DNA of 64,000 bases from Candidatus Nealsonbacteria bacterium (GTDB lineage Bacteria > Patescibacteriota > Minisyncoccia > Minisyncoccales > MHMH01), in NCBI GenBank assembly GCA_016188865.1, contig JACPGX010000001.1, positions 141,197 through 205,196 of the forward strand. The letters run 5' to 3'. A model generated the notes under the pieces. That model worked only from the letters and a program-made list of their open reading frames with translations. It did no database searches and was not told the DNA's origin. This document shows, piece by piece, positions 3,466 through 56,835 of this stretch. The translations under genes and the position numbers were made by a program. How positions within the stretch are numbered: the first letter of the stretch is position 1; the number at the start of each line of letters is the position of its first letter.

Positions 3466-4592
3466 AATAAAATTTCTAAGACATTTTTGATTATGAAATC
3501 AATCTCTTGATTTTTTAACTTTGGATAAAGGGGCAGAGTAATAGTTCTTTTACTGATTGCTTCGGCATTGGGAAAATCTCCCGGTTTATAACTGTATTTT
3601 TTACGATAAAAAGTCATCAGATGAACCGGCAACGACCATTGATTGGTGGTTGGGATTCCTTTCTTTTTTAATTTTTCTTGTATTTCATTTTTTTGGGATG
3701 GATTTACCCAAATAGTAAACGACCATCGAGCATTTTTTACTCCCGGCAGGGTCTTGGGAAAATTAAGCGCCGGGATGTTTTTAAAAGCTTTCTCATATCT
3801 GCGGCAAATCTCCTGCCTTCTTTGCCAAAATTTTTCTATGCGATCAAGTTGACCCACCAGCAAAGATGCCTGAAGATTGTTCATATTATATTTCCAGCCA
3901 TCAATCGTCATGTCAGGAGAAGAAAACTTTTTTTCGTAGCGCTCGTAAGCTGACTGTTCCAATCCCTGCAAGCGCATTTTTTTTAAGGTTTTGGCGGTTT
4001 GCTCGTCGTTCAAGGCAATAGCCCCTCCCTCACAGCAGGTTATATTTTTTGTGGCATAAAAACTGAAACAGGCGGCATCGCCCAATTGTCCGGGCCTGAC
4101 GCCGTCTCTGTTCCCTTCTACGCAATGAGCGGCATCTTCTATAACTTTTAACTTGTATTTATCGGCTATTTTCCTGATTTTTTTCATATCGACCATCTGG
4201 CCGTACAAATGAACGGGCAGAATAGCTTTGGTTCTCTTGGTAATGGCTTTTTCTATCAAATCAGCATCCATATTGCCGGTTGCAGGTTCAATGTCAACAA
4301 ATACTGGTTTGGCTCCTGTATGAAAAATGGCATTGCTGGTCGCAACAAAAGTAAGGGGCGTAGTGATAACTTCGTCTCCTGAGCCAACGCCAAACGCCAT
4401 CAAAGCCAAATGCATTGCCCCGGTGCAGGAAGTTGTTCCAACGGCATATTGGCAACCTAAATACCGGGCAAGTTTTTTCTCAAAATCATCAACTATTTTA
4501 CCGGTCGATAGAAAAACTCCCCTTAAAACTTTTATAGCACTATTTATATCGCTTTCTGAAATATTATGGCGATAAAATTCTATATGAGGCAT
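3462..4592 (-). CDS. DegT/DnrJ/EryC1/StrS-family PLP-dependent sugar aminotransferase (paralogue 1)
   Basis: Motifs GDEVITTPLTFVATSNAI, VIEDAAHC and SFYATKNITCCEGG (Schiff-base Lys). Close paralogue of 7386-8519. Confidence 0.85.
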   Translation of the reverse strand: MPHIEFYRHNISESDINSAIKVLRGVFLSTGKIVDDFEKKLARYLGCQYAVGTTSCTGAMHLALMAFGVGSGDEVITTPLTFVATSNAIFHTGAKPVFVDIEPATGNMDADLIEKAITKRTKAILPVHLYGQMVDMKKIRKIADKYKLKVIEDAAHCVEGNRDGVRPGQLGDAACFSFYATKNITCCEGGAIALNDEQTAKTLKKMRLQGLEQSAYERYEKKFSSPDMTIDGWKYNMNNLQASLLVGQLDRIEKFWQRRQEICRRYEKAFKNIPALNFPKTLPGVKNARWSFTIWVNPSQKNEIQEKLKKKGIPTTNQWSLPVHLMTFYRKKYSYKPGDFPNAEAISKRTITLPLYPKLKNQEIDFIIKNVLEILL

Positions 4593-4596
4593 AATT

Positions 4597-6075
4597 TTAA
4601 TTGCTGAGGTTCATTTCCAGCCAGCTTGAAAAAAAATTAATAATAATTTTAATCCTCTTAAACAGTTTTTTCCAGCCGTCAACCGTAATAAGAGATTTAA
4701 GCCCAAATCTAACAAGACGCCAAAACCCGTGCCCAAATTGGAAAACAAGAAACTTATAATATTTTTCTATTTCCGCTGAAGTCAATTCTTCGGTATGAAA
4801 ATTAATGTAGCGCCCCGCCGGAGAAAGCTTGTAATAATCCTCGAGATTTTCCAATTTATTATCCAACAAATTGCGTTCTTGGAGATATTGTCTTAATCGA
4901 GAGCCGGGAAGAGGCACAGTAACGTGGAGGCTCACCTCGTCGGGCTTGATCTTCCTTACCAATTGGGCTGACATTTTAATATCTAAAGGCGTTTCTTTGG
5001 GAAAACCCACCATAATAAACATTAAAGATTTAAGGCCGGCCTCTTTAGCTAATCTGAAAGTTCTATAAACGTTCTCTATTGTAATATCCTTATGGATGAC
5101 TTCATCTAAAATCTTCTGGGAGCCCGATTCAACGCCCCACCAAATCCAGGCAAAACCGGCTTCTTTCATTTTTTTCAATGTTTCCAAGTCAATATAGGGA
5201 CTGCAGCGGCCTTGCGTCAAAAACTTCAAATTCAATTTTCTTTTAATGATCTCACTGCAAATATCTTTAACCCACTCATTTTGTTTTGGAGTCATACCGA
5301 CCAATTCGTCATCGTAAAAGGCTACCGATTTGAGCCCAAACTTATTCTTGTAATACTCTATTTCATCTACTATATTTTTAGGATTGCGGGGGCGATAAAG
5401 CTTCGATCCCAAACTACAGAAAGTACACCGGTGCGGACATCCCCGCGAAGCCAATATGGTGATTATCGGCTTTTTGATTTCGTAATGACTCTTGGCGATG
5501 GGCTGACCTGGGTATTTCGAAAAATCGGATGTAAGCAGATGTAAAGCCGGCCAGGGGATGGAATCAATGTCTTTGATATATTCTCGGGTCTTGGTAAGAA
5601 TTAATTTGCCATCCCGTAAAAAAGCTATTCCGGCAATATTTTCTAAATCCTTGATTTTCCCGTCATGCCATTGGACTAATTCCAAAAACGTTATCTCCCC
5701 TTCTCCTAAAACAACGAAATTAATCGCTCCGTCGCTTATTTTCAAAACCTTTTCCGGTTCATTGGTCGGTCCAAACCCTCCGACAACGATCAAGGCTTTG
5801 GGTAAAACCTGCCGAGCTATTTTGGCAGTTTTTATCAGAGCCGGCAACACTATTGAAGTTCCTCCTATCCCGACGATATCGGGATTTTCTCTGGCGAATA
5901 AATCGCCCAAATCCTGCCAGCTCATTTTTTCTATGTCGGCATCAACAACCTTAATGTCAGAATAGCCGTATTTTTCCAGATAACCTGCCAAATAAAGCAA
6001 ACTCAAAGGCGCTGACTCCGATTTACACCTGCCCAAGTCGTTAAAAACCGGCGGGTTAATTAGAAGAATTTTCAT
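4597..6075 (-). CDS. Radical SAM enzyme with cobalamin-binding-type N-terminal domain (class B-like)
   Basis: CxxxCxxC motif in SRGCPHRCTFCS. The N-terminal MKILLINPP...GIGGTS...VVGG flavodoxin-like region matches the B12-binding/radical SAM architecture. Confidence 0.75.
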   Translation of the reverse strand: MKILLINPPVFNDLGRCKSESAPLSLLYLAGYLEKYGYSDIKVVDADIEKMSWQDLGDLFARENPDIVGIGGTSIVLPALIKTAKIARQVLPKALIVVGGFGPTNEPEKVLKISDGAINFVVLGEGEITFLELVQWHDGKIKDLENIAGIAFLRDGKLILTKTREYIKDIDSIPWPALHLLTSDFSKYPGQPIAKSHYEIKKPIITILASRGCPHRCTFCSLGSKLYRPRNPKNIVDEIEYYKNKFGLKSVAFYDDELVGMTPKQNEWVKDICSEIIKRKLNLKFLTQGRCSPYIDLETLKKMKEAGFAWIWWGVESGSQKILDEVIHKDITIENVYRTFRLAKEAGLKSLMFIMVGFPKETPLDIKMSAQLVRKIKPDEVSLHVTVPLPGSRLRQYLQERNLLDNKLENLEDYYKLSPAGRYINFHTEELTSAEIEKYYKFLVFQFGHGFWRLVRFGLKSLITVDGWKKLFKRIKIIINFFSSWLEMNLSN

Positions 6076-14692: not shown

Positions 14693-14781
14693 TCTTGCCG
14701 AGGAAGAAAATACCAATCGAATATCAATTTTCGGTCTCTCAATGGAATACTTTGTCGCTAAAATCGCGATGCAGTTAGACG

Positions 14782-14806
14782 ATGTTAGACGTCCGACGTC
14801 TAACAT
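14782..14806. repeat. 25-bp perfect palindrome (REP-like hairpin), copy 1
   Basis: ATGTTAGACGTC-C-GACGTCTAACAT. It is preceded by a partial direct copy, GTTAGACG, at 14774-14781. Confidence 0.9.
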
Positions 14807-14809
14807 CTA

Positions 14810-15496
14810 TTATTCCAAGAGAAAATCCTTGGTGATTATTTTTTTTGGCTTAAGCTTTGCTGTGCTCGTTTTTATAAATTTATAATAACTATTATTATCA
14901 GAGAATTGATTGAGGATAATGTCTGGTTTTAAAAGTTCACCCCAGCGATTATTTTTGACTAAATCTTGACAGCTTGACCATGGATATTTTTCTTCTTTGT
15001 CTTTCCATGCTTCTAATGCTCTTGGATTACGATGGATATATGCTGAAAGATAGAGAAGTTGTTCATCTGTTTCTACTGGAATGGCCCGGAAAGCGCCCTG
15101 GAAAAGATGACCATGTTTTTTATATTTTGTGTTGAAATATTTTGCGTAGCCAGTTTGTATTCTTTGGAGATAATGTGAGATGCCATTACTGTTATCGGTT
15201 TTTTCTTGGACTAAAAGATGAAAATGATTTGGCATAACGGTAAATATATTCAATTCTACAATTCTTTTATCCGCAATTTGGCGTACAGTCTCCTCGGGTA
15301 TATTGAATTGCGAATACTTAAGAAAATATGAACTTTGACGGCCGATATTATAGAAAGATAACGGAGCTTGATACGCAAAAATAAAAAAGAGAAAACGGCT
15401 GTAATCTCTTTCGTCAATAAATATTGCTGATTCGTCGTTGCTGCGATTACAAATATGGTAATAGTTATTTTGCGCAAATTTAAATTTCCTTATCAT
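14810..15496 (-). CDS. IS200/IS605-family Y1 (HUH) transposase, RAYT-like
   Basis: YYHICNRSNDESAIFIDERDYSRFL, HUH motif in MPNHFHLLV, GHLFQGAFRA, and the Tyr region YIHRNP. The start is moved to the ATG at 15496 (MIRKFKF...). The tracked start at 15535 lies inside the palindrome. Confidence 0.8.
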   Translation of the reverse strand: MIRKFKFAQNNYYHICNRSNDESAIFIDERDYSRFLFFIFAYQAPLSFYNIGRQSSYFLKYSQFNIPEETVRQIADKRIVELNIFTVMPNHFHLLVQEKTDNSNGISHYLQRIQTGYAKYFNTKYKKHGHLFQGAFRAIPVETDEQLLYLSAYIHRNPRALEAWKDKEEKYPWSSCQDLVKNNRWGELLKPDIILNQFSDNNSYYKFIKTSTAKLKPKKIITKDFLLE

Positions 15497-15509
15497 GATT
15501 ATAATATAA

Positions 15510-15536
15510 CATGTTAGACGTCCGACGTCTAACATG
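15510..15536. repeat. 27-bp perfect palindrome (REP-like hairpin), copy 2
   Basis: CATGTTAGACGTC-C-GACGTCTAACATG. Its inner 25 bp are identical to 14782-14806. Confidence 0.9.
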
Positions 15537-15540
15537 TTCT

Positions 15541-34480: not shown

Positions 34481-35489
34481 ATATAGAACAAGTTTTACAC
34501 AAAGGATACCCTCTTTTTTGGGCTATTTTGCGTCTTTCTCTGACGACTGGATCAAACCAAATATCTTTTAATTTCTGCGATAAAACATTGCCGTAAAAAT
34601 ATCGACCGTTTAAGTCATAACAGCACATCGACACTGACCCGTCTGCCAAAACTACCAAATGTGACTTGGCCAAGGGACATTTATCGGGGGGATTTTTTAT
34701 TTTCAGTTTGCCATCTTCTTTTTTGTATCTTACGGACCTGTCGTTTTCTGACTTGTCAGGAAAAAACTTTCTAGATAATTCCTCTCTTTCTTTTTCGGAA
34801 TAAGCATACTCTCCCAGATTAAAAGATCTTATGGAGAGTCTGTCGACTTTTAAATCTTTTGCTATTTTTTTGACATCTTCCAACTCATTTTGATTTAATT
34901 TATTAAAAACAAACTGCAATTCAATAAACGGTCTTCTCAGCTTTAGGGCCTGCTTCTGTCGGCAGAAATAAGTAATATTGCCCAAAACCTGCTCGAAATT
35001 GGCTCCCACTCTAAATTGCTCATAAGATTCCTTGGAGGTTCCATCTAAATCAAGAATGATCCTGTCTAATTTTGAACGAAATAAATCATTCGTCATCTCC
35101 CTATTCAGCAAAACCGCATTAGTGCTTATTTCAGTATATAAGCCATTTTGGTGGGCATACCCTGCCATTCTAGAAATATCGGGGTTGAGCAAGGGCTCAT
35201 TGGTAAAATATAAAAGTACGACCTGTACCGAATCTTTGATGTTATCAATGACTTTTTTGAAATTATCGAAAGACATCAGTTCTCTTTTTCTGCAGATTTT
35301 ACCGGCTGGCGTAGGGCAGGTGGGGCATCGCAAATTACAATAATTCCCCACCTCAATCAGGGCAGCATAGGGATGCCCAAAAAGCCGATATTTAATATTG
35401 GCTTTTATAAAATGCCATGGCTTAGAAAAATTTCTTTCTAATATATTGATTAAAATATGCTTCTTAAAAGCCGGGTAAATGCGATTCAT
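34464..35489 (-). CDS. Radical SAM enzyme with Cys-rich C-terminal (SPASM-like) extension
   Basis: CxxxCxxC in VGNYCNLRCPTCPT. C-terminal cysteines occur in CPLAKSH...SMCCYD...PLCKTCSIY. Confidence 0.7.
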   Translation of the reverse strand: MNRIYPAFKKHILINILERNFSKPWHFIKANIKYRLFGHPYAALIEVGNYCNLRCPTCPTPAGKICRKRELMSFDNFKKVIDNIKDSVQVVLLYFTNEPLLNPDISRMAGYAHQNGLYTEISTNAVLLNREMTNDLFRSKLDRIILDLDGTSKESYEQFRVGANFEQVLGNITYFCRQKQALKLRRPFIELQFVFNKLNQNELEDVKKIAKDLKVDRLSIRSFNLGEYAYSEKEREELSRKFFPDKSENDRSVRYKKEDGKLKIKNPPDKCPLAKSHLVVLADGSVSMCCYDLNGRYFYGNVLSQKLKDIWFDPVVRERRKIAQKRGYPLCKTCSIYESKN

Positions 35490-36529
35490 TTAAATTCAAA
35501 GATTATTTTATCAATAAAATTGTTTAAATTATGGTTTTTGACAACTATTTCTCTTAGGGCGGGGTCTTCCGCGGCTCCCATTAAATTAAGCATCTTTTGA
35601 GCTAAATCTTTCTCATCTCCTTTTTTGAACATGTACTTTTGAGCCAAAATCTCTCGATATGCCTCATTGCAGGTAAGAACCAGGCAACCCGAAGACATGG
35701 CTTCTAAAACCACCTTATCCAGACTGCCGGTTGAGCTGGGATTAACGAAAAGGTCGGCCCAATTAAAGTATTCCGGCATTTCAGAAAAAGAAACTCCGCC
35801 GGCAAACTCAATATGGCTCTCCAAATTATAATTTTTAACCAAATTTTTCAAATCGGCTAAGTATTCTTCCTGAGATTTTAAAAGCGGCCGGCCGAGGATC
35901 CTCGCCTTTAAATTATTAATGTTCTTTTGATTGACTAAGATATTAACTGCCTCAATTAAAGTTTTGTGGTCTTTCACCGGCACAAGTCGGGCGGCGTACA
36001 GAATTTTGATTACGCGAGGTTTGACCTCCTCGGGGGGTCGAACCTCTTTAATTGGTTTAAAAAATTCCGTATCTATCGCCTGTCCGACTACTTCAATTTT
36101 TTTACTTTTTAACCGGCAGCCGGCAGAAGATGAGGTAACAATAACATTCACTAATTTTTCTGCTAATTTCAGCTTCCAGGGAAGAGCGCCGTGGGCATAC
36201 CATAAAACCAGTTTTTTGCCGAAAAGCTTAGCCAAAGGAAAAGCGGCTATAGCGAAAATAGAACCCATGTGGCAATAAACGCCGTCTGATTCCGGCAGGC
36301 ATTTAAATAGAATTTTCTGCATTCTAAAAAACTGCCTTATTTTGGAATAGCCCTTTTCTTTGCCCAAAGAAAAAACCTCAACGTTTTCCGGCAAATGATG
36401 CTCTCCAACCTGCAACCCTACAACAAAAACTTTTTCCAGTTTTTCTGAAAATTTTTCCAAAATCCTATGAAAAAAACTTAAGTTATCATCGTTAAAATCT
36501 ACTCTTTGAACGATAATTAAGAGTTTCAT
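35486..36529 (-). CDS. Glycosyltransferase, GT4-like
   Basis: GSLDKVVLEAMSSGCLVLT and ILYAARLVPVKD. It carries the 31-nt palindrome at 36016-36046 in its interdomain linker. Confidence 0.75.
   Translation of the reverse strand: MKLLIIVQRVDFNDDNLSFFHRILEKFSEKLEKVFVVGLQVGEHHLPENVEVFSLGKEKGYSKIRQFFRMQKILFKCLPESDGVYCHMGSIFAIAAFPLAKLFGKKLVLWYAHGALPWKLKLAEKLVNVIVTSSSAGCRLKSKKIEVVGQAIDTEFFKPIKEVRPPEEVKPRVIKILYAARLVPVKDHKTLIEAVNILVNQKNINNLKARILGRPLLKSQEEYLADLKNLVKNYNLESHIEFAGGVSFSEMPEYFNWADLFVNPSSTGSLDKVVLEAMSSGCLVLTCNEAYREILAQKYMFKKGDEKDLAQKMLNLMGAAEDPALREIVVKNHNLNNFIDKIIFEFK
36016..36046. repeat. 31-nt palindromic element (type B, degenerate copy) inside a GT4 gene
   Basis: GAGGTTTGACCTCC-TCG-GGGGGTCGAACCTC. 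Translated on the minus strand as EVRPPEEVKP. Confidence 0.75.
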
Positions 36530-36629: not shown

Positions 36630-37631
36630 TCAGCCCTGTGGATAATTTATCATTCTCAAATAATTATCTGTGTATTTTTCGTTGGAAAATTTGTTTTGAA
36701 CTAACTCGCGGCCGCGCCTGCCCATTTCAACGGCTATATTTTTATTCCTTAATAAAGTTCTTAATTTTTCAGCTAGTTGCTCGACATTACCAACTTCAAA
36801 TAAGAAACCGGTCTGGCCATCTTTGACCAAATCGGGTATACCCCCCACATTGCTGGCAATTACCGGTTTCCCTAAGGCCATGGCCTCTAATATAACTCTT
36901 GGCAAACCCTCCGATAAAGATGGAACAATCAAGCAATAACAATCCCTCATTCTTTCCCTAACTTCTATCAGAGACAATTTACCATCGGGCAAACCTTCGC
37001 CCGCTAAAACCAATTTAAAATCTAAAAATTCCTGCTTAATCTTATCAAATGCTTCCACCAAATATTTTACCCCCTTAACCGGATCATTCCTTCCCACCAA
37101 TAAAACAAAATTATTGAATTTTATATCGCTTTCAGTCAAAAAATCGTCTAAATCGGTAAAGGTCGGAAAAATAAAATATGGTTTGTCGGGAGCAATTTTC
37201 TCTGCCTTATCGATAAGATATTGTGCCACTCCCCTAATCTTATCTGCGTTGCGAAAACTAAACGGAGCTAAAAAGGCAATACTCTTTTTGACTTCCCAGT
37301 CGCCGTGCATTTCAATAATCAGCTCTTTACCTAATATCTTCTTCAAAATAACTCCGACAAAACCCTCCATTAATGGCGATTGAGCCACAATAACGTCAAT
37401 TCTTTTAAACAAACACAGCCAAAAAGACAAACAAAAAGCCGAGGGCCAGAAAAAAACATTTCTGGGCAAAAGATAAAATTCTGCACCCCAAAGCTTTTTG
37501 CCAAAAGTCATTTTCCCCCGAGCCAAAACATAGGACTTTATTCCTCTGGCCAGCCCTTCGAACTTTTTTCTCAAATGGACGTCCTTTTCTAAATCATATT
37601 TAGTTACGCTGATGAATAGAACGTTTTTCAT
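36630..37631 (-). CDS. Glycosyltransferase, GT4-like
   Basis: EGLPRVILEAMALGKPVIASNVGGIPDLV. Confidence 0.8.
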   Translation of the reverse strand: MKNVLFISVTKYDLEKDVHLRKKFEGLARGIKSYVLARGKMTFGKKLWGAEFYLLPRNVFFWPSAFCLSFWLCLFKRIDVIVAQSPLMEGFVGVILKKILGKELIIEMHGDWEVKKSIAFLAPFSFRNADKIRGVAQYLIDKAEKIAPDKPYFIFPTFTDLDDFLTESDIKFNNFVLLVGRNDPVKGVKYLVEAFDKIKQEFLDFKLVLAGEGLPDGKLSLIEVRERMRDCYCLIVPSLSEGLPRVILEAMALGKPVIASNVGGIPDLVKDGQTGFLFEVGNVEQLAEKLRTLLRNKNIAVEMGRRGRELVQNKFSNEKYTDNYLRMINYPQG

Positions 37632-37647
37632 GGTTTTATGATATCCG

Positions 37648-37702
37648 ACTTAGGACTTAGGAACTTAGTTTCTAAGTAAACTTAGAAACTAAGTTCCTAA
37701 GT
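37648..37702. repeat. 48-bp perfect palindrome (22-bp arms, 4-nt loop) preceded by an extra ACTTAGG unit
   Basis: ACTTAGGAACTTAGTTTCTAAG-TAAA-CTTAGAAACTAAGTTCCTAAGT at 37655-37702, with an extra ACTTAGG at 37648-37654. It covers the stop codon of 37697-38689. Confidence 0.9.
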
Positions 37703-38689
37703 TCGTTTTAATATCCGTAACGTTTTCTCCACTAAATTATCCCAGCTAAAATCTTTTAATTTCTCTCTAGAATTGCGGATAAATTTTTCCTGCAAACTCT
37801 TGTCGCTCCACAACTTCAAAATAGCTTGCTTTATCTGTTCTTTATTCTTGTATTCTACCAAAAAACCATTAAAATTATCTTCAATTAATTCCGGATTGCC
37901 CCCTTCACTGCTGGCTATCACCGGCACTCCAAAACTCATTGCTTCCAATATGACATGAGACAGACCCTCATAGCCTGAATTTAAAACAAACATATCGGCA
38001 GCCTTAAAGTAAAAAGGCATTTCTTCATGGGGAACTTTTTTATCCTCTCCGACAATTACTAATTTGAAATTTGGATTTTCTTTAAGCAAGTCTGGCATAA
38101 TGGCCCTTAAGTCGTCGAAGCCCTTCCATGGCACAGGACGTCCAACTGATAAAATAATATTTCCGTCAATGCCAATATTTTTTTTGGCATCCTCCTTAGA
38201 AATATCCGGTCGAGAACCGTTCTCGACCGCATTATAAATAACCTCTATTTTGTTCTCCGATACGCGCCAAGAAGCCACCATTTTTTTAACATACCTGCTG
38301 GGAACAATAATTTTATCAGCTCCTCTGGCAACATAAGCCTGAATACTTTTTAAATAATTCTTCTTCTGCTCCCAGGCTGCATCCCCGACAACCTTTAAAA
38401 CAAATTTTTTTCTTAATAATTTTGCCGCCCAGAAAGCCGGCAATCCTGCGCTAGTCGGATTTTGAGCATAAATAACATCAGCCTCTTTTGCCAGCCGAAG
38501 CAAACCCAAGAAATATAAAAAATGCTTTAAACCTTTAGGGTATTTTTTCAATCTTCCTGAATAACTAATAACTGGCTGATTCAATTCTTTGGCCAGCCTT
38601 TTAACATATGTCGCTGGCCCGCCAATGTCAGGCGGATATATGCCGGTGGCTAAGACAATTTTCATATATTTTAAATACCTCTTGGGCAA
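37697..38689 (-). CDS. Glycosyltransferase, GT4-like
   Basis: MKIVLATGIYPPDIGGPATYV and EGLSHVILEAMSFGVPVIASSEGGNPELI. The likely true start is the ATG at 38665. Confidence 0.8.
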   Translation of the reverse strand: MPKRYLKYMKIVLATGIYPPDIGGPATYVKRLAKELNQPVISYSGRLKKYPKGLKHFLYFLGLLRLAKEADVIYAQNPTSAGLPAFWAAKLLRKKFVLKVVGDAAWEQKKNYLKSIQAYVARGADKIIVPSRYVKKMVASWRVSENKIEVIYNAVENGSRPDISKEDAKKNIGIDGNIILSVGRPVPWKGFDDLRAIMPDLLKENPNFKLVIVGEDKKVPHEEMPFYFKAADMFVLNSGYEGLSHVILEAMSFGVPVIASSEGGNPELIEDNFNGFLVEYKNKEQIKQAILKLWSDKSLQEKFIRNSREKLKDFSWDNLVEKTLRILKRT

Positions 38690-39740
38690 TATTCTGCCAA
38701 TCGTATCTCGTTAATCCTGCAATAGCAAAATTAACGAGGCGCTCTCTTAATTCTGGATTATTATAAATTCTTAATATGGCTTTGGCAATCTCCTCTGGAT
38801 TTCCCGGCGTCACCAAAAGACCATTTTTCTCATTTTCGATAATATCTAAAATTCCGCCAACCTTGCTTGCAATAACCGGGACCCTAGCTGCTATGGCTTC
38901 CAAGATAGCTATGCCGAAGCCCTCTTTCAGGGAAGGCAAAACGAAACAGTCCGCCATAGCCAGATATTCTGGAATGCCTTCTGGAGGAATCGGTCCCAAA
39001 AATTTTACTTTCTTCACTAAGCCGAGCTCTCTGGTCAAATTTTCTAAATTTTTTCTTTCAGAACCATCGCCGATAATGAATAATTGGAGATCCGACCCCG
39101 CCAAGGCGAGATCGGATCTTGTAAAAGCCCTAATCAAATATTCTATCCCCTTTACTTTTTCCAACCTCGCCACCGTCATCACCACAAAACCATCTTTTTG
39201 TTGTTTCTTTAAATTCTCAAATCTTTTTAAATCAACGCCGTTAGGTATTACCTCAATATTTGAGCATCCGATTTCTTTAAAATATTCTTTGATGGCGGAA
39301 CTTGCAGCAATGCAGACTTTAGCGTTTCTATAAACTATTTTTTTTAAGAAATTATTCCCCTCCAACCTCTGAACGGTCACAATGTAGGGTATGTTGACAA
39401 TTTTTGAAATATAATATCCTATGCAGGCCCCCAGAAATCCTTGGCAGTGTAAAAGATTAATTTTCTGTAATAATATTAGAAAAAAAGAGCGCGAAAATAT
39501 GAATGGCATAGCTGTCAAAATGTGAAAGAACGAAGAATAGGAAAGGTCTTTCAGGGCAAATAAAGATGTCCGAAAAATTTTAACTCCATTTTTAACTTCG
39601 TGTTTGGCGCTATCCCCAACCCTAGCTGTAACAACAAAAATTTCGGCTTTATTCGCAAGCTTTTCGGCAATATTTTGCGTCCAGGTCTCTAATCCTCCGA
39701 TCACGGGATAATAATGTAAAACCGGCATTAAAATTCGCAT
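38628..39740 (-). CDS. Glycosyltransferase, GT4-like
   Basis: MRILMPVLHYYPVIGGLETW and EGFGIAILEAIAARVPVIASKVGGILDII. Confidence 0.8.
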   Translation of the reverse strand: MRILMPVLHYYPVIGGLETWTQNIAEKLANKAEIFVVTARVGDSAKHEVKNGVKIFRTSLFALKDLSYSSFFHILTAMPFIFSRSFFLILLQKINLLHCQGFLGACIGYYISKIVNIPYIVTVQRLEGNNFLKKIVYRNAKVCIAASSAIKEYFKEIGCSNIEVIPNGVDLKRFENLKKQQKDGFVVMTVARLEKVKGIEYLIRAFTRSDLALAGSDLQLFIIGDGSERKNLENLTRELGLVKKVKFLGPIPPEGIPEYLAMADCFVLPSLKEGFGIAILEAIAARVPVIASKVGGILDIIENEKNGLLVTPGNPEEIAKAILRIYNNPELRERLVNFAIAGLTRYDWQNIAQEVFKIYENCLSHRHISA

Positions 39741-40828
39741 AGTACATTTTTTATTGATTCCAACATCGTTCTAATATCTTTTTCCGCGTAGTAATTCTGC
39801 AAGGGGAAATTGATGATTCTCTTGGCGACTTCAAAGGTGTTGGGGAATTCTTCCCGGCTTAAAACAATAGGCGTGTGCCAAATGCGGGTGCAGAAAACTC
39901 GGTACCTTCTCAATCCCGCCACAATTTCATCTCTTTTATTTTCCAAATTTTTGGGGACTAAAGCGGAAAGATAACAAAAAACGTTGTTTTCGTGCTCTTG
40001 AACTTCAAAACCTAAATTTTGAAGCTCTTGCTGAAAAAACTTAGCAAGCTTTATCCTGTTTTGCATAGATTTTTCAAAATCTTCCAGAGAATAATAGAAA
40101 AGGGCCAAAGATAACTTATTGAGGCCTGCGGGCTCCGGTAATTTTTCCTTTCTTAGCATCTTCGGAGCGATATCGTTGCCAAACTTTTTAAAAATAAAGG
40201 CGAAAAAAGGAAGGCAATTCAGTAAAGAAATGAAATCCCTGAAATTAAAATTGGTTTTTGGCAGAGAGATTTGCCAATCCTTGGGACAAACTAACAATCC
40301 GCCTCTTAATGCCGGGAATTGCTTGTAAAGACTGAAAAATGCAATATCACTTTTCGGCTTAACCCCGAAAGCATGAGCGCAATCTTCAATAATCGCAATA
40401 TCGGAGGTCCGACCTCCCGACAAATATGACGGGAGGTCGGACCTCAATCCATCAACATCGAACGGGAGACCGTAGGTGTGGCACACTAAAATCGCCTTTG
40501 TCCGGGGAGTAATCTTCCTAAAGATTTCTTCTCTTTTAATATGAAAAGTTTTCAAATCAATATCCAAAAAAATCGGTTTTATATTATATTTCTCTAAAAT
40601 TGGCTGGAATATATCGCAAATATAAGCCGGCATCATTATTTCTGAATTTTGAAGATTCAACTTTCCAATAATAATTTTGAAAGCAGACCGGCCCATGTCG
40701 GTGAAAATAAGCTGTTTACTCGGAAAATATGACTCAAGTTTTTGAGCTAAATTAATCTTCTTGAAATTATTAAGTTTTATTTGCGGGTGGACGAAAAACA
40801 TACTAGTCTTACTCTGGCTAGGCACCAT
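39728..40828 (-). CDS. Divergent DegT-family PLP-dependent aminotransferase carrying an in-frame palindromic element
   Basis: HTYGLPFDVDG, IIEDCAHAFG and FFSLYKQFPALRGG (Lys retained). The residues LRSDLPSYLSGGRTSD are encoded by the repeat at 40403-40445. Confidence 0.65.
   Translation of the reverse strand: MVPSQSKTSMFFVHPQIKLNNFKKINLAQKLESYFPSKQLIFTDMGRSAFKIIIGKLNLQNSEIMMPAYICDIFQPILEKYNIKPIFLDIDLKTFHIKREEIFRKITPRTKAILVCHTYGLPFDVDGLRSDLPSYLSGGRTSDIAIIEDCAHAFGVKPKSDIAFFSLYKQFPALRGGLLVCPKDWQISLPKTNFNFRDFISLLNCLPFFAFIFKKFGNDIAPKMLRKEKLPEPAGLNKLSLALFYYSLEDFEKSMQNRIKLAKFFQQELQNLGFEVQEHENNVFCYLSALVPKNLENKRDEIVAGLRRYRVFCTRIWHTPIVLSREEFPNTFEVAKRIINFPLQNYYAEKDIRTMLESIKNVLCEF
40403..40445. repeat. 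42/43-nt nested double-hairpin element (type A), copy 1, inside a DegT-family gene
   Basis: GGAGGTCCGACCTCC-CGACAAATATGAC-GGGAGGTCGGACCTC. Its reverse complement matches 46914-46955 at 40 of 42 positions. Confidence 0.9.
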
Positions 40829-41475
40829 CCAAACGGCCTGCCAAAAATATTTTCAAATGATAAAAAAAATTTAGGAGATAAATTCAAATTTAATGGAGGA
40901 TAAGTATTAAAAATCTTCTGTTTCCTGAAAACGAAGCCTTCTTTTTTAAACTCTCGTTTGATGCCGGAGAGTGAAAGATAGTAAGGGGAGTTTCTGTTGA
41001 TAAGCCTTTTCAGGCTGCCAAAAATCTTATAAAAAGACAGGCAATTTATAAAGTCGCAGATTAAAGTGCCCCCTGGCTTTAAAACTCTGACAATCCCTCT
41101 TTGAACTCCCGGATAGGTAGCGGCCGAAACGTAGCCGAAGCTGGTCACAACATCAAAATAATTATCTGGATATTTAAGATTATAAACATCTCCCTCTTCT
41201 ATATTAATTCTGTTTTCGAGGCCGGCTTTTCTAACTTTTTCCCTGGCGGTCTCAATCGCTTTTTTTGAAATATCAAACCCGATTATTGCAAAATCAGTGT
41301 TCTTGGCCAAAAGAATATCAATTTCGCCTAAGCCGCAGCCGATATCCAGCAGTCTGCCGCTTTTTTTCTCGCCCAAAAGCGCCAAAGTATTTTCTAAGGT
41401 TAAGGTAATTGTAGCCTGCCGCGCTGAATTTAATCTGTAATTTTTTTGACTATATTGCTCCCACTTTTCGCTCAT
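40777..41475 (-). CDS. Class I SAM-dependent methyltransferase
   Basis: Motif I in RLLDIGCGLGEIDILLA; LKPGGTLI lies downstream. Confidence 0.75.
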   Translation of the reverse strand: MSEKWEQYSQKNYRLNSARQATITLTLENTLALLGEKKSGRLLDIGCGLGEIDILLAKNTDFAIIGFDISKKAIETAREKVRKAGLENRINIEEGDVYNLKYPDNYFDVVTSFGYVSAATYPGVQRGIVRVLKPGGTLICDFINCLSFYKIFGSLKRLINRNSPYYLSLSGIKREFKKEGFVFRKQKIFNTYPPLNLNLSPKFFLSFENIFGRPFGWCLARVRLVCFSSTRK

Positions 41476-42458
41476 AATTTATATTTTAATAAATACGGGC
41501 TTAATTTTTTAATTAAAAATGGCGGTAAAAGGCCGAAAATATTTCTGAGGGTTTCGAAGTCCAGCTTCCCTGGAAGGCCGGACTTCATCGTTCCTCCGCA
41601 ATTCGTTAATTCAAAAATCGGATATTCCCTGCCTCCCCAGCCCTGTTTGAAAATTTGCAAAGGAGAACCAATTCTTGTCCCTCCAAAATCGAAAATTTTA
41701 TTATCCTGCAAACTCTTTTGAATTTGTTCCCATAGTATTAAATAATTGGCTCCCAAATTTTTATACTTTTCATCGATGGCATTTTGAAAATAATGGACGA
41801 ATTTTTCATAAAAGAGAAAGGCGCTTCCGGCTATAACAAGGTTATTCTTTTTGGCTAAAATAATCTCCGATTCATTGGAGTTAAAAAAATAATCAAAAAA
41901 AGAAAATGGATATGCCGGAATTTTGTGTCTTTTAGCGCTTTTAAGATATAAATTATAAAAATTTTTAAGGTCTTTCTGGCTTTGACATTTCTCAACTTGA
42001 ATATTATTGGCCTTGGCTTTTTCTATTTCGTGGCGCGTAGTTTTCCTTAAATCAATATCCTCCAAAAAATAACTTACCCTGCCCGACTGGTCGAGAACGC
42101 TTCTCGCCCCATCGAGAGCGAGAAACGTTCTCGCTAGTTGGGGGTGGAAGTTGATTCTGACGCGATTCTTGAATTCAGACAATAAATCCTGCTTAAATTT
42201 TTCGGCATCAATATTTTCCAGCAAAGGCAATGGCCCGCCGTATTCGCAAAATGGATGAGAAATCAATTTATCCCCCACTCTGGCCATGCTTAATAATGCC
42301 TTATCATCGTACATATACCTTTCAAATTTCAACCATTTAAATTGCCTTTCAAGGAATTCCTCCCATTCCATATAATGAAAAAAAGTCTTGAATAAGACTT
42401 TTCCCAACAAATCCTGCCATTCATTTTTGTTTGTAATTTTGGTAAATTTGTTCTCCAT
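41472..42458 (-). CDS. FemAB/GNAT-like acyl- or aminoacyl-transferase family protein
   Basis: The HPFCEYGGPL, LYLKSAKRHKIPAYPFSFF and AGSAFLFYEKFVHYFQNA pattern resembles FemAB-type (Acetyltransf_6-like) proteins. It contains two in-frame palindromes. Confidence 0.45.
   Translation of the reverse strand: MENKFTKITNKNEWQDLLGKVLFKTFFHYMEWEEFLERQFKWLKFERYMYDDKALLSMARVGDKLISHPFCEYGGPLPLLENIDAEKFKQDLLSEFKNRVRINFHPQLARTFLALDGARSVLDQSGRVSYFLEDIDLRKTTRHEIEKAKANNIQVEKCQSQKDLKNFYNLYLKSAKRHKIPAYPFSFFDYFFNSNESEIILAKKNNLVIAGSAFLFYEKFVHYFQNAIDEKYKNLGANYLILWEQIQKSLQDNKIFDFGGTRIGSPLQIFKQGWGGREYPIFELTNCGGTMKSGLPGKLDFETLRNIFGLLPPFLIKKLSPYLLKYKL
41557..41585. repeat. 29-nt imperfect palindrome (type C) inside the FemAB-like gene
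   Basis: AAGTCCAGCTTCCCTGGAAGGCCGGACTT. Translated on the minus strand as KSGLPGKLDF. Confidence 0.55.
42092..42133. repeat. 42-nt nested palindrome (16-nt arms, 10-nt spacer) inside the FemAB-like gene
   Basis: CGAGAACGCTTCTCGC-CCCATCGAGA-GCGAGAAACGTTCTCG, with one arm mismatch. Each arm is itself a CGAGAA..TTCTCG hairpin. Translated as ARTFLALDGARSVL. Confidence 0.8.
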
Positions 42459-45883: not shown

Positions 45884-45917
45884 AAAAAAGCCCGAGGCGT
45901 TAGCCTAGGGCTTTTTT
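45884..45917 (-). terminator. Rho-independent terminator with bidirectional shape (A6 and T6 flanks)
   Basis: AAAAAAGCCC-T-AGGC-TAAC-GCCT-C-GGGCTTTTTT. It includes the stop codon of the YdcF-like gene. Confidence 0.6.
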
Positions 45918-46570: not shown

Positions 46571-47713
46571 ATGGAAACTGTCAATACCGCAAAACGCAAA
46601 ATACTCTTTCTGGTCACCCAATCTGAAATGGGCGGCGCGCAGAGGTATATTTATGAAGTATCAAAAATACTGTCAGAAAGACACGAGATTTTGGTTGCGG
46701 CCGGAGAGGGAGATGGAGAGTTCTTCCAGAAACTAAAAAATACACCGGTTGAACCGGTGTATCTGAAACATCTGCAAAGAACTCCTGAACCGCATTCAAT
46801 TATCATGGCTATCGTTGAAATAATAAAACTTCTCAAGGCAGAAAGGCCGGATGTTTTGTTTTTGTGTTCTACTACTGCTGGGCTACTCGGCTCCATTGCC
46901 GCCCGAATTTACAGAGGTCCGACCTCTCGTCAGATTTGTCGGGAGGTCGGACCTCGCGTAATCTATCGTATTGGCGGCTGGGCCTTCAACGACCCTCGCC
47001 CATTCTGGAAAAATTGGCTTATCCTGCTGGCGGAGAAATTAACCGCCCGATTTAAAGATATAATCGTAGTGAACTCCGAATATGACCTGCGGATTGCGTT
47101 AGAAAAACGAATCGTTTCTCCGGAAAAAATAGTGAAAATCTATAATGGGCTTGATCGAAATTCTTTGAATTTCTTGCCCAAAGACGAAGCCCGTGGTCTG
47201 TTGACATCCGATGTCAACAGACGAATGATTGGGTGCGTGGCGAATTTTTATAAGACTAAAGGGCTAAAGTGCCTTATTGACGCTTTCGATTTTCTGATGT
47301 CCGGCTTCCCGAAGAAGTCGGACATCAAGCTATTCGTCATCGGCGATGGGAAACTGCGGTCGGAACTTGAAGCTCAAATAAAAAAACTCGACTTAGAAGA
47401 CAGGGTGATTTTAGCCGGCAGAATGCCCGACGCCTATAAATATCTAAAGGCATTTGATGTCTTCGTGCTTCCCTCTCTTAAGGAGGGTTTTCCATGGGTC
47501 ATACTGGAAGCTGCGGTAGCTGACGTTCCGATTGTCGCCACAAAAGTAGGAGCCATACCAGAAATATTGCCGGAAGAATTTTTAGTAAAACCAGGCGATG
47601 CCCAAGCTTTGGCAAAAAAAATTGGCTGGATGCTTGAACATCCAGCCGTACCAAAACTCAAGCAGAACTTCTCTCTGCAAAAAATGGCAGAGGAAACCGA
47701 GAGGCTACTCTAA
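46571..47713 (+). CDS. Glycosyltransferase, GT4-like (only plus-strand gene) carrying in-frame palindromic elements
   Basis: SEMGGAQRYIYEV and EGFPWVILEAAVADVPIVATKVGAIPEIL. RGPTSRQICREVGPRV is encoded by the repeat at 46913-46955. Confidence 0.8.
   Translation: METVNTAKRKILFLVTQSEMGGAQRYIYEVSKILSERHEILVAAGEGDGEFFQKLKNTPVEPVYLKHLQRTPEPHSIIMAIVEIIKLLKAERPDVLFLCSTTAGLLGSIAARIYRGPTSRQICREVGPRVIYRIGGWAFNDPRPFWKNWLILLAEKLTARFKDIIVVNSEYDLRIALEKRIVSPEKIVKIYNGLDRNSLNFLPKDEARGLLTSDVNRRMIGCVANFYKTKGLKCLIDAFDFLMSGFPKKSDIKLFVIGDGKLRSELEAQIKKLDLEDRVILAGRMPDAYKYLKAFDVFVLPSLKEGFPWVILEAAVADVPIVATKVGAIPEILPEEFLVKPGDAQALAKKIGWMLEHPAVPKLKQNFSLQKMAEETERLL
46913..46955. repeat. 42/43-nt nested double-hairpin element (type A), copy 2, inside a GT4 gene
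   Basis: AGAGGTCCGACCTCT-CGTCAGATTTGTC-GGGAGGTCGGACCTC. Confidence 0.9.
47297..47325. repeat. 29-nt imperfect palindrome (type C) inside the plus-strand GT4 gene
   Basis: ATGTCCGGCTTC-CCGAA-GAAGTCGGACAT. Translated as MSGFPKKSDI. Contains GTCGGAC. Confidence 0.55.
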
Positions 47714-49247: not shown

Positions 49248-49259
49248 ATTTTTATTTAT

Positions 49260-49298
49260 CCCCCCACCTTTCAGAATACCCCACCGAAAGGTGGGAGG
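49260..49298 (-). repeat. Structured 5'-leader element with two mutually exclusive hairpins
   Basis: On the + strand, CCCCCCACCTTTC (49260-72) can pair with GAAAGGTGGGAGG (49286-98). Alternatively CCCACC (49280-85) pairs with GGTGGG (49290-95) through a 4-nt loop. Confidence 0.6.
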
Positions 49299-49335
49299 AT
49301 TTAATTAATTATTTTTAATTGCAATTGCTAAGTTT

Positions 49336-49414: not shown

Positions 49415-50452
49415 TTAAAAACGCGATTCAAGCCAATTGGCAAAAGATTCGAATGCACTGAAAAGACTGGCTTGGGCTGCGGAAATTTGCTGCTGCAAAA
49501 GCTGAATTAATTGCGCAAGCAAATTAATGATTTTTTGCTGGAGTTCTTGAATTAAAGCCCGGAGTTCTTCTGGAGAAAGAGGACCACCGGTGCCGGTGGG
49601 AGCGGGTTCTTCTTCCTTTATTTGTTGAGGTTCGACCTCCTCGGGAGGTCGAACCTCTTCGATTTCGGGCAGTGGCAGAGTTTTAACGTCCGGGAAAACC
49701 GTTAAAGCAGAAACTAAATTTTGCCCTCGGTCGTTAAAAGCTTTTATCTGCCTTCCAGAATATTCCGTATCAGGCCTTAAGCCTGTTTCGTCAAGATAAG
49801 AAATGTTTGCTCCGCCCGAAGCTACCGTATTCAGATTCTCATCTAAAATTTTAAAGCCGAACTCATTATTGGATAAATCCGTAAAATGCCACCTGATTGT
49901 TGAAGTGGATATTGCCTCGCCTGACTTTGCCAAGGGAGAAACAGGAGCAGAAGGAGTGTCGCTTCCTGCCAGAATCATTCTTTCAAGGCCAATAATTTTT
50001 TTGTCAGTGGGACCCTTAAGACTGACGTCAGGAAAAACTGCTGAATTTATTTGTATTTCCGGTTTAATTGTTTTTCCAGTATAGGTAGTAGAAGCGATGT
50101 CTACGGTAATAAAAATCCTTTGCTTTGTAAAAGTTCCATTGAGAGTTGTGTCAAAAAAAGGAGAAAATGATTTCCTCAATTTTTCAGATTCATCGCCGTC
50201 CCAACCCGGCGAAACGCCGTCTTCATAAATTGAAAGCTGGGAAATATCATATTGCTGAACAGTTCCGGTGTTATCAATTTTTATTGAAGTTAAACCGGCG
50301 CCGGGAAGAGTCAAATCTAAAATCAAGAGGTTAGTAGTGCCAGCCGGCACAGCGTAAGTTGACTGCGGGTTGACTATAAAATCATTGGCTGTTGAAGCAA
50401 AAGAAAAACCAGGCGCTAAAACAAAAACTAAAACTAAAATAATTTTCCTCAT
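49415..50452 (-). CDS. Secreted protein with FN3-like domain and C-terminal coiled coil
   Basis: Signal peptide MRKIILVLVFVLAPGFSFAS. STIRWHFTDLSNNEFGFKILDENLN...TEYSGRQIKAFNDRG is FN3-like. The C-terminus is LRALIQELQQKIINLLAQLIQLLQQQI. Confidence 0.6.
   Translation of the reverse strand: MRKIILVLVFVLAPGFSFASTANDFIVNPQSTYAVPAGTTNLLILDLTLPGAGLTSIKIDNTGTVQQYDISQLSIYEDGVSPGWDGDESEKLRKSFSPFFDTTLNGTFTKQRIFITVDIASTTYTGKTIKPEIQINSAVFPDVSLKGPTDKKIIGLERMILAGSDTPSAPVSPLAKSGEAISTSTIRWHFTDLSNNEFGFKILDENLNTVASGGANISYLDETGLRPDTEYSGRQIKAFNDRGQNLVSALTVFPDVKTLPLPEIEEVRPPEEVEPQQIKEEEPAPTGTGGPLSPEELRALIQELQQKIINLLAQLIQLLQQQISAAQASLFSAFESFANWLESRF
49584..49599. repeat. 16-nt palindrome inside the 345-aa secreted protein gene
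   Basis: CCACCGG-TG-CCGGTGG, translated as PTGTGG. It lies 27 nt from the type B element. Confidence 0.6.
49627..49657. repeat. 31-nt perfect palindromic element (type B) inside the 345-aa secreted protein gene
   Basis: GAGGTTCGACCTCC-TCG-GGAGGTCGAACCTC (14-bp arms). Translated as EVRPPEEVEP. Confidence 0.85.
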
Positions 50453-56280: not shown

Positions 56281-56835
56281 TTAATGTGTCCCATTTTTAA
56301 CATAATATACTCCCCTGCCGGCGCCATTCCTTACCATTATGCCGGTTTGACAAAGCTTATCTAAATCTCGGAGAACGGTTCTCCGATTAATTTCTGGGAA
56401 AAGCCCAACCACATCGCCTATTCTAAATCGGCCGTTTCCGTTAATGTATGCAATAATTTTCTCCTGTCGCCCCGCCTTTGCCAAGGCTTCGGTAGGCAGA
56501 TAGTTATCCACAGTTTTTCCAGAGTCGTGTTGCCCAACATCCGATGTTTGACATAGCTGACTCAACTTATTATATTCTCTCCTTAGGACCTCAAAATTCC
56601 TCGAATCCACCCAATTATTCTGCTTGGCTAAATCAAAAAGCCCAAAAATCTCTGTAATCTTACGAGAACACATCTCGTCCTGACGAGAAATGTTCTCGTA
56701 AGATTCCACCATTATTCTATCAGCTAATTCTCTTATTTTAGAAGCCAAATCCTCTCCAACGGGAAAAAGAGCGGTCACTTTATAGACCGCTAAAGTCAAT
56801 TTTAGAAGATGTTCTTTGTCCAGATTTTGCCGCAT
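56281..56835 (-). CDS. Putative transcriptional regulator: N-terminal four-helix-bundle domain plus C-terminal winged HTH
   Basis: HLLKLTLAVYKVTALFP...IRELADRI is four-helix-bundle-like. INRRTVLRDLDKLCQTGIMVRNGAGRGVYY is a DeoR-like wHTH. Confidence 0.5.
   Translation of the reverse strand: MRQNLDKEHLLKLTLAVYKVTALFPVGEDLASKIRELADRIMVESYENISRQDEMCSRKITEIFGLFDLAKQNNWVDSRNFEVLRREYNKLSQLCQTSDVGQHDSGKTVDNYLPTEALAKAGRQEKIIAYINGNGRFRIGDVVGLFPEINRRTVLRDLDKLCQTGIMVRNGAGRGVYYVKNGTH

Follow-up and report, generated by a model that had tools for sequence, protein, structure and literature searches.

We examined a 64,000-nt stretch of DNA from a Candidatus Nealsonbacteria metagenome-assembled genome (MAG), referred to below as the window, in which the gene of a secreted protein contains two palindromes that are translated as part of a disordered linker. 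A reading of this DNA made without database searches (hereafter the sequence-only reading) had taken both palindromes for repeat DNA and had suggested that linkers of surface proteins are built, at least in part, from such repeats. The gene and the two palindromes are as follows.

49415-50452, minus strand: gene of a 345-amino-acid (aa) secreted protein, host of the 31-nt palindrome, made up, from N to C terminus, of a hydrophobic helix, a beta-rich body resembling FN3, an acidic/proline linker that is disordered, and a long helix

49627-49657, unstranded: perfect 31-nt palindrome, GAGGTTCGACCTCC-TCG-GGAGGTCGAACCTC, with 14-bp arms; two units of a 13-nt mini-palindrome (GAGGTTCGACCTC / GAGGTCGAACCTC) enclose a CTCGG middle

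49584-49599, unstranded: 16-nt palindrome, CCACCGG-TG-CCGGTGG (CCACCGGTGCCGGTGG); a tandem of two ACCGGY units read as Thr-Gly-Thr-Gly, incidental and not a repeat element

Both palindromes, the 27 nt between them and the perfect 14-bp arms of the longer one were confirmed inside this gene, and the peptide quoted for them is present in its translation, which includes ...PEIEEVRPPEEVEPQQIKEEEPAPTGTGGPLSPEE.... The corresponding protein record, an exact match from a Candidatus Nealsonbacteria MAG, is that of a hypothetical protein (locus tag HYV47_01005), encoded on a contig of 271 kb. An AlphaFold model of the protein (40 homologs, mean predicted local distance difference test score, or pLDDT, of 82) starts at the N terminus with a hydrophobic helix, which is followed by a body rich in beta structure (residues 33-240), a segment of low confidence (274-290) and a single long helix (294-344), and some of the homologs carry an FN3 annotation or PF00041. 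The description of a linker placed between an FN3-like body and a C-terminal helix is therefore sound. Read on the minus strand, the 31-mer contributes 11 residues, EVRPPEEVEPQ (266-276), to the start of this linker.

The two palindromes proved to be of different kinds. None of 100 shuffles gave any match to the 31-mer at three mismatches or fewer, none of 30 shuffles contained perfect arms longer than 12 bp, and as RNA the 31-mer folds into a hairpin of -27.5 kcal/mol (z = -7.8); chance is thus far exceeded. The 16-mer folds at -10.2 kcal/mol (z = -1.3) and was equalled in 24 of 200 shuffles, which places it within chance. It has no second copy in the window nor in 884 kb of related loci, and DNA-level conservation of it was found in no ortholog compared. 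The 16-mer is an incidental duplication of an ACCGGY (Thr-Gly) codon pair, palindromic only because ACCGGT is self-complementary. The notion of a linker built from repeat DNA is supported for the 31-mer, with its 11 residues, and is not supported for the 16-mer.

The 31-mer is a repeat, belonging to a short hairpin element whose copies occur within many genes of groundwater bacteria of very small size. A search of the window that allowed three mismatches recovered a second copy, and a half-site search recovered two longer relatives.

36016-36046, unstranded: second copy of the 31-mer, 29 of 31 nt identical, its palindrome now imperfect, inside the GT4 glycosyltransferase open reading frame (ORF) 35486-36529 (minus strand), in the same frame, encoding EVRPPEEVKPR

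40404-40445, unstranded: 42-nt family member whose 16-bp arms enclose a 10-nt loop, in the DegT-like aminotransferase ORF at about 39728-40852 (minus strand), read as LRSDLPSYLSGGRTS

46914-46955, unstranded: 42-nt family member, in the GT4 ORF 46571-47713 (plus strand), read as RGPTSRQICREVGP

The glycosyltransferase that holds the second 31-mer is unrelated to the linker protein, and the two 42-mers are identical at 40 of 42 positions in gene-sense orientation, yet are read in different frames. All four copies sit in genes with homologs, and the hairpins of these family members fold at -27.5 to -39 kcal/mol (z about -7 to -8). The four copies, which we call GAGGT-type after their arms, are all found between 36 and 50 kb, in a cluster of glycosylation and cell-surface genes. 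This cluster, whose annotated extent is about 13.7-54.8 kb, comprises several GT4 genes along with DegT-like, B12-radical-SAM, FemAB-like and cytidylyltransferase genes, and its surface proteins include one of 509 aa, which matches PG_binding_1, and one of 1425 aa. The density in the window is 4 doublets in 64 kb; on the 1.43-Mb chromosome of the Omnitrophota genome bin17, at least 8 doublets are found among the matches listed. We also noticed that the same 8 nt, GCGTAATC (..P-R-V-I..), stand on the 3' side of the element in three independent genes (at 36016-36046 and 46914-46955 in the window, and in the retrieved loci L076, L082 and L109). This shared flank could be a target preference, flanking DNA copied together with the element, or a coincidence in glycosyltransferase-like genes.

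Members of the family have a common design, in which a variable middle, often lengthening the stem, is enclosed by two 13-nt arms, GAGGT[T/C]CGACCTC and, as its reverse complement, GAGGTCG[A/G]ACCTC. Each arm is itself a small palindrome, GAGGT-YSR-ACCTC. Scanning public genomes, one per GTDB species, with the pattern GAGGTYYGACCTC-N3-18-GRGGTCGRACCTC returned at least 111 loci, where our estimate from information content gives about 0.1 chance matches. Among the matches listed, the named records are nearly all from Patescibacteria or Omnitrophota and originate from many independent studies; a few are titled Gammaproteobacteria, Dehalococcoidales, Anaerolineae or Bdellovibrionales, and several are titled 'bacterium' alone. 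The patescibacterial lineages with the element are many and include Nealson-, Giovannoni-, Zambryski-, Chisholm-, Levyi- and Saccharibacteria and Paceibacterota. Across Patescibacteria and Omnitrophota we count more than 115 copies, which measure 29-43 nt apart from one 92-nt variant. In the viral contigs of IMG/VR the family pattern had 0 matches, so that no sign of a phage vector is seen there.

The 884 kb of retrieved loci contain 269 arms, compared with 0.6 expected from base composition, and the arms occur as 132 adjacent pairs versus 11 solo arms. The palindromes are maintained as such. Although the search pattern let the two arm centres vary independently, 110 of the 115 matches to it have complementary centres (TC..GA or CC..GG), as against about 50%, by our estimate, if they were independent, and compensatory switches between arm types are observed among homologous loci (L085/L086 and L041/L043/L107). 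Middles are shared among copies of one genome, not between genomes, which is the pattern expected of copying within a genome. For example, CTCGG is found in both 31-mers of the window, the two 42-mers have one 10-nt loop in common, and two adjacent genes of the Omnitrophota genome bin17 (L006) share a version of 51 nt.

Copies in ORFs, which are up to 1759 aa long, use all three frames (EVRP../EVEP.., RGSTS../GGRTS.. and RFDL../RSNL..). There is no preference for coding sequence: of 98 copies, 46 fall in ORFs that read through them and continue for 60 aa or more on either side, versus 59% of random positions in the same loci, and intergenic copies are about as common as genic ones. The link to linkers and surface proteins that the sequence-only reading had drawn is therefore not a specific one, as the same DNA is found in enzyme loops (two GT4 glycosyltransferases and the DegT-like aminotransferase), in three frames and between genes. 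The elements are 62% GC in loci that average 44% GC. They are depleted in stop codons over the six frames (59% versus 20%), a depletion that we do not claim as an adaptation because the control was not matched to the GC content of the middles.

Several other identities for the element were considered. An intrinsic terminator was rejected, given that the element lies inside an ORF and that consensus matches are weak and no commoner than in shuffles; the flank bias of the whole family, with T upstream and A downstream of the hairpin, is the opposite of that of a terminator. A duplicated palindromic target site is ruled out, since one arm is the reverse complement of the other, its centre flipped, and not a direct copy of it. 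The arms also bear a resemblance, in sequence only, to the tRNA T-arm (GGTTCGA) and to Shine-Dalgarno and anti-Shine-Dalgarno sequences (GGAGGT and ACCTCC). The whole window gave no match to Rfam at gathering thresholds. Literature searches on the arm sequences or on palindromic repeats of the candidate phyla radiation (CPR) yielded nothing relevant, and we found no paper describing such repeats in CPR or Omnitrophota, in a coverage of the literature that was incomplete and amounts to absence of evidence only.

In the ortholog comparison suggested in the sequence-only reading, the 31-mer is present, absent or replaced at the linker site. Orthologs of the 345-aa protein at 52-72% amino-acid identity hold the element at the same position, where 30, 28, 29 and 32 of 33 nt are identical to the window copy, compared with 60-74% for the remaining gene. 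The site is empty in two orthologs (L116 and L117), and in a third (L115) it is occupied by a different palindrome and a single GGAGGTCGGACCTCC. Conservation acts at the DNA level, not at the protein level, and for near-identity at an orthologous linker site one has to assume that the hairpin is under selection, that insertion was repeated or that gene conversion took place.

The other sites present a similar picture. Four states are found among orthologs at the site of the 46914 copy, where the junctions read TAY A before the element and GY GTA ATC after it: empty (TAT AAA TTA AAA ATT ATC, in L121), a solo arm (L120), 42-nt doublets (the window and L122, the latter with swapped arm centres) and, with the same arms, a version of 92 nt (L119). 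The AlphaFold model of this GT4 protein (46571-47713, mean pLDDT 89.6) drops below 50 only at residues 118-124, which fall within the peptide of the element, between a helix and a strand. In the 347-aa glycosyltransferase that carries the 36016 copy, the peptide is present in about 5 of 119 orthologs, in addition to three decayed versions, and the closest ortholog (79% identity) is without it. The best solved homolog of the DegT-like protein is short by 7 residues at LSGGRTS. These element sites are surface loops or linkers that tolerate extra residues. The idea of the sequence-only reading is partly supported. The phenomenon is not one of linkers as such: on our view hairpin repeats may arrive at any place and persist where the protein can accommodate them, the linker being one permissive site.

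As a separate observation, orthologs P0231, P0232, P0256, P0279, P0322, P0323 and P0329 of the 347-aa glycosyltransferase carry AT-rich repeated peptides (for example KIQNSKFKIQNSKF or QTTNYKL) at the same interdomain loop. These peptides hint at further, AT-rich repeat families at this hot spot.

The family is physically linked to genes of Y1 transposases similar to RAYTs, the tyrosine transposases associated with repetitive extragenic palindromic (REP) sequences. The window contains one such gene, between two palindromes.

14810-15535, minus strand: gene of an IS200-like Y1 (HUH) transposase resembling RAYTs, with the HUH motif MPNHFHLL and the Tyr in YIHRNP

14781-14807, unstranded: palindrome GATGTTAGACGTC-C-GACGTCTAACATC, which follows the stop codon of the RAYT-like gene after 2 nt (14808-14809)

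15508-15538, unstranded: palindrome AACATGTTAGACGTC-C-GACGTCTAACATGTT, placed where the RAYT-like gene starts, with a 25-nt core in common with 14781-14807

The encoded protein matches Pfam Y1_Tnp (PF01797) with 39.7 bits versus a cut-off of 23. In an alignment of RAYT-like proteins MPNHFH is invariant, and all four full-length sequences have the Tyr in a YIHxNP-like motif. Since one palindrome (core ATGTTAGACGTC-C-GACGTCTAACAT, with CGTC in its stem) brackets the gene, the arrangement is a REP-RAYT-REP layout, and flanking on both sides by the same palindrome is also found in L017. A phmmer search of all ORFs of the retrieved loci added four RAYT-like genes, two of which are directly flanked by GAGGT-type palindromes. 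The one in L047 has a single arm upstream and a doublet that begins 3 nt past the stop codon, and in the one in L103 the start codon is closely preceded by a doublet and by a solo palindrome of 25 nt.

A metagenome scan with the alignment of RAYT-like proteins produced 555 relatives, and 80 loci were kept. The same palindrome is present on both sides of 17 of the 67 testable RAYT-like genes, versus 0 of 17 control ORFs (p = 0.018), the control set having been freed of unrecognised RAYT ORFs and their antisense frames. From the upstream to the downstream copy of these palindromes the centre base is flipped, as seen for instance in L126 and L195, and units of the GAGGT type flank RAYT-like genes also in L135/L136, L157 and L173. 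Different RAYT-like lineages carry different palindromes of the same arm-centre-arm design, which fits the occurrence of several other palindrome families in the window and in related loci.

One candidate arrangement was discarded here, namely a transposase gene enclosed by the element pairs that lie about 725-765 nt apart in L006 and L017: in the former the element lies in each of two adjacent metabolic genes, and in the latter the RAYT-like gene stands beside the pair. Two further observations concern palindromes in or next to RAYT-like genes. In L017 (Nealsonbacteria MHMD01000028), GGAGGCC-G-GGCCTCC is found past the 3' end of the RAYT-like gene and as an identical copy inside its coding sequence (4272-4288 and 4745-4761), with identical flanks, TGTT..CTCAAT. 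In L135, L136 and L173, GAGGT-type arms lie about 170-180 nt inside the RAYT-like genes.

We read the 31-mer as a very short element similar to REPINs, the hairpin-forming doublets of REPs, that is tolerated in permissive coding loops, and we put the probability of this reading at roughly two in three (0.68). By analogy with known systems, the element was probably spread by a hairpin-cutting transposase. As in the REP/REPIN-RAYT and IS200/IS605 systems, an IS200-like Y1 HUH transposase would recognise the hairpin that forms in single-stranded DNA, cut it and join it again, and this cutting and rejoining would copy the element to new sites. Having arms without a stop codon in any of the six frames, and being small, the element could be read through. 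Copies that keep the frame in surface loops, interdomain connectors and disordered linkers would be tolerated and then translated as part of the host protein. In the 345-aa protein, such an insertion would be the source of the residues EVRPPEEVEPQ in the linker that joins the beta-rich body to the C-terminal helix.

The systems closest to this model are REPs and REPINs with their RAYTs (Bertels & Rainey 2011, PMC3116915, PMC3337134; Messing et al. 2012, PMC3479197; Bertels et al. 2017, PMC5581495). The GAGGT-type elements resemble them in having a short palindromic unit that appears to be multi-copy in a genome, and inverted pairs of units around a spacer that fold into one long hairpin. Likewise, the Y1/HUH genes are flanked on both sides by a cognate palindrome, inverted and with a flipping centre base, and the palindromes are lineage-specific. 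REPs are about 20-40 nt long and REPINs about 60-110 nt, whereas the unit is here of 13 nt and the doublet of 29-43 nt, and the hosts are Patescibacteria and Omnitrophota, not mainly Proteobacteria.

A number of points weigh against a REPIN-like element. We know of no REP or REPIN with arms or doublets as short as those of the GAGGT type. REPs are extragenic by definition, whereas about half of the GAGGT copies lie inside ORFs and are translated. One end of a REP usually carries a conserved tetranucleotide, GTAG or CGTC (Di Nocera et al. 2013, PMC3733652), and the flanks of the GAGGT type are without either tag. The transposases score below the threshold curated by NCBI for RAYTs: the equivalog NF047646, the sole NCBIfam match of the window protein, has a cut-off of 80, and the window and L017 proteins reach 45 and 25.5 bits, respectively, so that they are either distant relatives of RAYTs or a separate Y1 group. 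With their intragenic copies, untagged flanks and sub-threshold transposases, the elements are better described as a REP/REPIN variant than as plain members of this class. Furthermore, the RAYT-like gene of the window is flanked by GTTAGACGTC-C-GACGTCTAAC, which is not of the GAGGT type, and no cognate RAYT-like gene of the GAGGT type was seen in the 64 kb. No transposition event was observed. Beside the element, neither a target-site duplication nor a conserved target could be defined, the flanks showing a weak symmetric T-rich/A-rich bias and no direct repeats, and the ends are not sharp, as the palindrome extends past the conserved arms in about 17% of copies. Finally, near-identity of the linker-site element across 52% amino-acid divergence is hard to fit to one old neutral insertion.

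Other known elements share part of this behaviour. Rickettsia palindromic elements (RPEs), reportedly described by Ogata and colleagues in 2000, are also palindromic repeats that reside in frame in coding genes, are translated at surface-exposed, tolerant positions and vary among orthologs. They are of about 100-150 bp, restricted to Rickettsia, unrelated in sequence and without an identified transposase, whereas the GAGGT elements are 3-4 times shorter and associated with Y1 genes. The resemblance to RPEs, which are mentioned in PMC2635572, is one of behaviour only, that is, of in-frame residence in genes. [quoted passage not shown] Their two ends, however, differ, each being an imperfect hairpin, and have tetranucleotides defined for cleavage and target, whereas here the same perfect palindrome stands on both flanks and the dispersed units are free of cargo. 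GC-rich palindromic clusters are known from yeast and fungal mitochondrial genomes; these, too, are short GC-rich hairpins in an AT-richer genome and also occur in coding sequence, but they are eukaryotic and organellar, unrelated in sequence, and lack a Y1 transposase.

Among alternative explanations, the one that survives best is that the element is a cis element selected by the host at the RNA or DNA level and kept for its usefulness, however it had come to be there in the first place; it might stabilise the mRNA, serve as an RNase III site, pause or attenuate translation, or bind a protein. The near-identity at the orthologous linker site, the compensatory changes in the arms and the high stability of the hairpins would all be expected of such an element, the arms hold sequences resembling Shine-Dalgarno (GGAGGT) and anti-Shine-Dalgarno (ACCTCC) motifs, and enterobacterial REPs have gained host functions. 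We nevertheless hold this explanation to be unlikely. At each of the three sites compared, many orthologs are without the element, which is therefore dispensable for those genes, and its position follows no logic relative to gene starts or ends. The empty Rfam search, the terminator-like matches at shuffle frequency and the order of the flanks, T before and A after, also speak against a regulatory hairpin. Moreover, identical 31- and 42-mers in unrelated genes would still demand a copying mechanism.

A REPIN-like element must also be set against an origin in place, in which template switching or fold-back synthesis at quasi-palindromes would have generated the structures at hot spots with the motif GAGGT-YSR-ACCTC, with no mobile element involved. 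Many other nested arm-centre-arm palindromes of different sequence exist in the window and in related loci, palindromy sometimes extends past the arms, and correction within a hairpin could give perfect complementarity. Such a process, however, cannot yield identical middles or loops in unrelated genes (CTCGG at 36016 and 49627, the 10-nt loop at 40404 and 46914, the 51-nt element of L006), nor the same 13-nt arms more than 100 times in different phyla, and it leaves the flanking of Y1 transposase genes unexplained. We rate it as quite improbable.

A still weaker case can be made for selection on the protein, with the DNA palindrome as a by-product of a direct EV.P EV.P repeat. The EVRPPEEVEP peptide does recur in several orthologs of two different proteins, and a direct EVRP/EVEP repeat suits a disordered linker. 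This explanation is contradicted by the use of three frames (RGSTS..GGRTS and RFDL..RSNL in the other two) and by intergenic copies. In addition, synonymous positions are conserved (32 of 33 nt versus 60% for the remaining gene), and the arm centres co-vary as base pairs, not as codons. We consider it very improbable. Coincidence or an assembly artefact is hardly credible, for while the 16-mer alone is within chance and chimeric inverted joins may arise in metagenome assemblies, the 31-mer was matched in none of the 100 shuffles, the element is present in MAGs from many independent studies and assemblers, and reading frames are kept across it with homology on both sides.

Returning to a REPIN-like origin, we may go further and propose, more tentatively and with somewhat more doubt than confidence, that these copies form an undescribed cross-phylum family of very short REPIN-like elements in Patescibacteria and Omnitrophota. 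Its members would reside routinely inside genes, in all three frames, and stay near-identical at orthologous sites while host genes diverge to about 50% amino-acid identity, which would imply upkeep by a Y1 transposase or by selection on the hairpin. They would be a systematic source of loop and linker peptides in surface and glycosylation proteins encoded by these reduced genomes.

REP/REPIN-RAYT systems are textbook extragenic repeats that have been studied mostly in Proteobacteria. If our reading is true, their range reaches Patescibacteria and Omnitrophota, whose very small, gene-dense genomes have little intergenic space, and the elements persist there by living inside genes and being translated, a behaviour so far best known from RPEs. 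The minimal REP-like unit would then go down to a 13-nt palindrome. Short unexplained insertions in CPR proteins (EVRPPEEVEP, RGPTS, GGRTS, RSDL) would become recognisable as derived from elements and could be masked in alignments and structure predictions, and the elements could be used as strain-level markers. The question raised is why the DNA is nearly invariant at orthologous sites.

The window harbours other palindromes in addition to the GAGGT type. A second family, with a GAGAAC-S/W-GTTCTC core and the same arm-centre-arm design, occurs solo and as doublets at 38207-38229, 42092-42133, 56368-56386 and 56656-56705, its hosts being a GT4 gene, a FemAB-like gene and a DeoR-HTH gene. Its core is also found as doublets in other Nealsonbacteria loci (L014 4380-4423, L070 4123-4158, L076 and L085). 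The GT4 gene at 46571-47713 contains at least five palindromes, at 46740-46762, 46914-46955, 47196-47222, 47295-47327 and 47624-47647. Its orthologs have other palindromic inserts in the loops at 47196 and 47295 (for example LLTSDFN..LKSEVN and RSDLHYSRSD), so that the same loops appear to have been struck repeatedly. A perfect AT-rich palindrome of 48 nt with ACTTAG-like units and 23-bp arms, ACTTAGGAACTTAGTTTCTAAGT-AA-ACTTAGAAACTAAGTTCCTAAGT, occupies 37655-37702, in the short gap between the GT4 genes 36630-37631 and 37697-38689; no other copies were found in the window or in the 884 kb of loci.

Two hairpins between genes are of another type. At 49258-49300, within the 167 nt that separate the surface-protein gene from the gene following it and just upstream of the latter's start at 49247, an imperfect GC-rich hairpin, ATCCCCCCACCTTTC..GAAAGGTGGGAGGAT, contains a Shine-Dalgarno-like GGAGG and could sequester the ribosome-binding site. 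The hairpin AAAAAAGCCCGAGGC-GTTA-GCCTAGGGCTTTTTT at 45884-45917, flanked by a run of A and a run of T between two minus-strand genes, differs from the intragenic palindromes in that it resembles a common bidirectional intrinsic terminator. Overall, 62 of the 64 ORFs of at least 100 aa in the window are on the minus strand.

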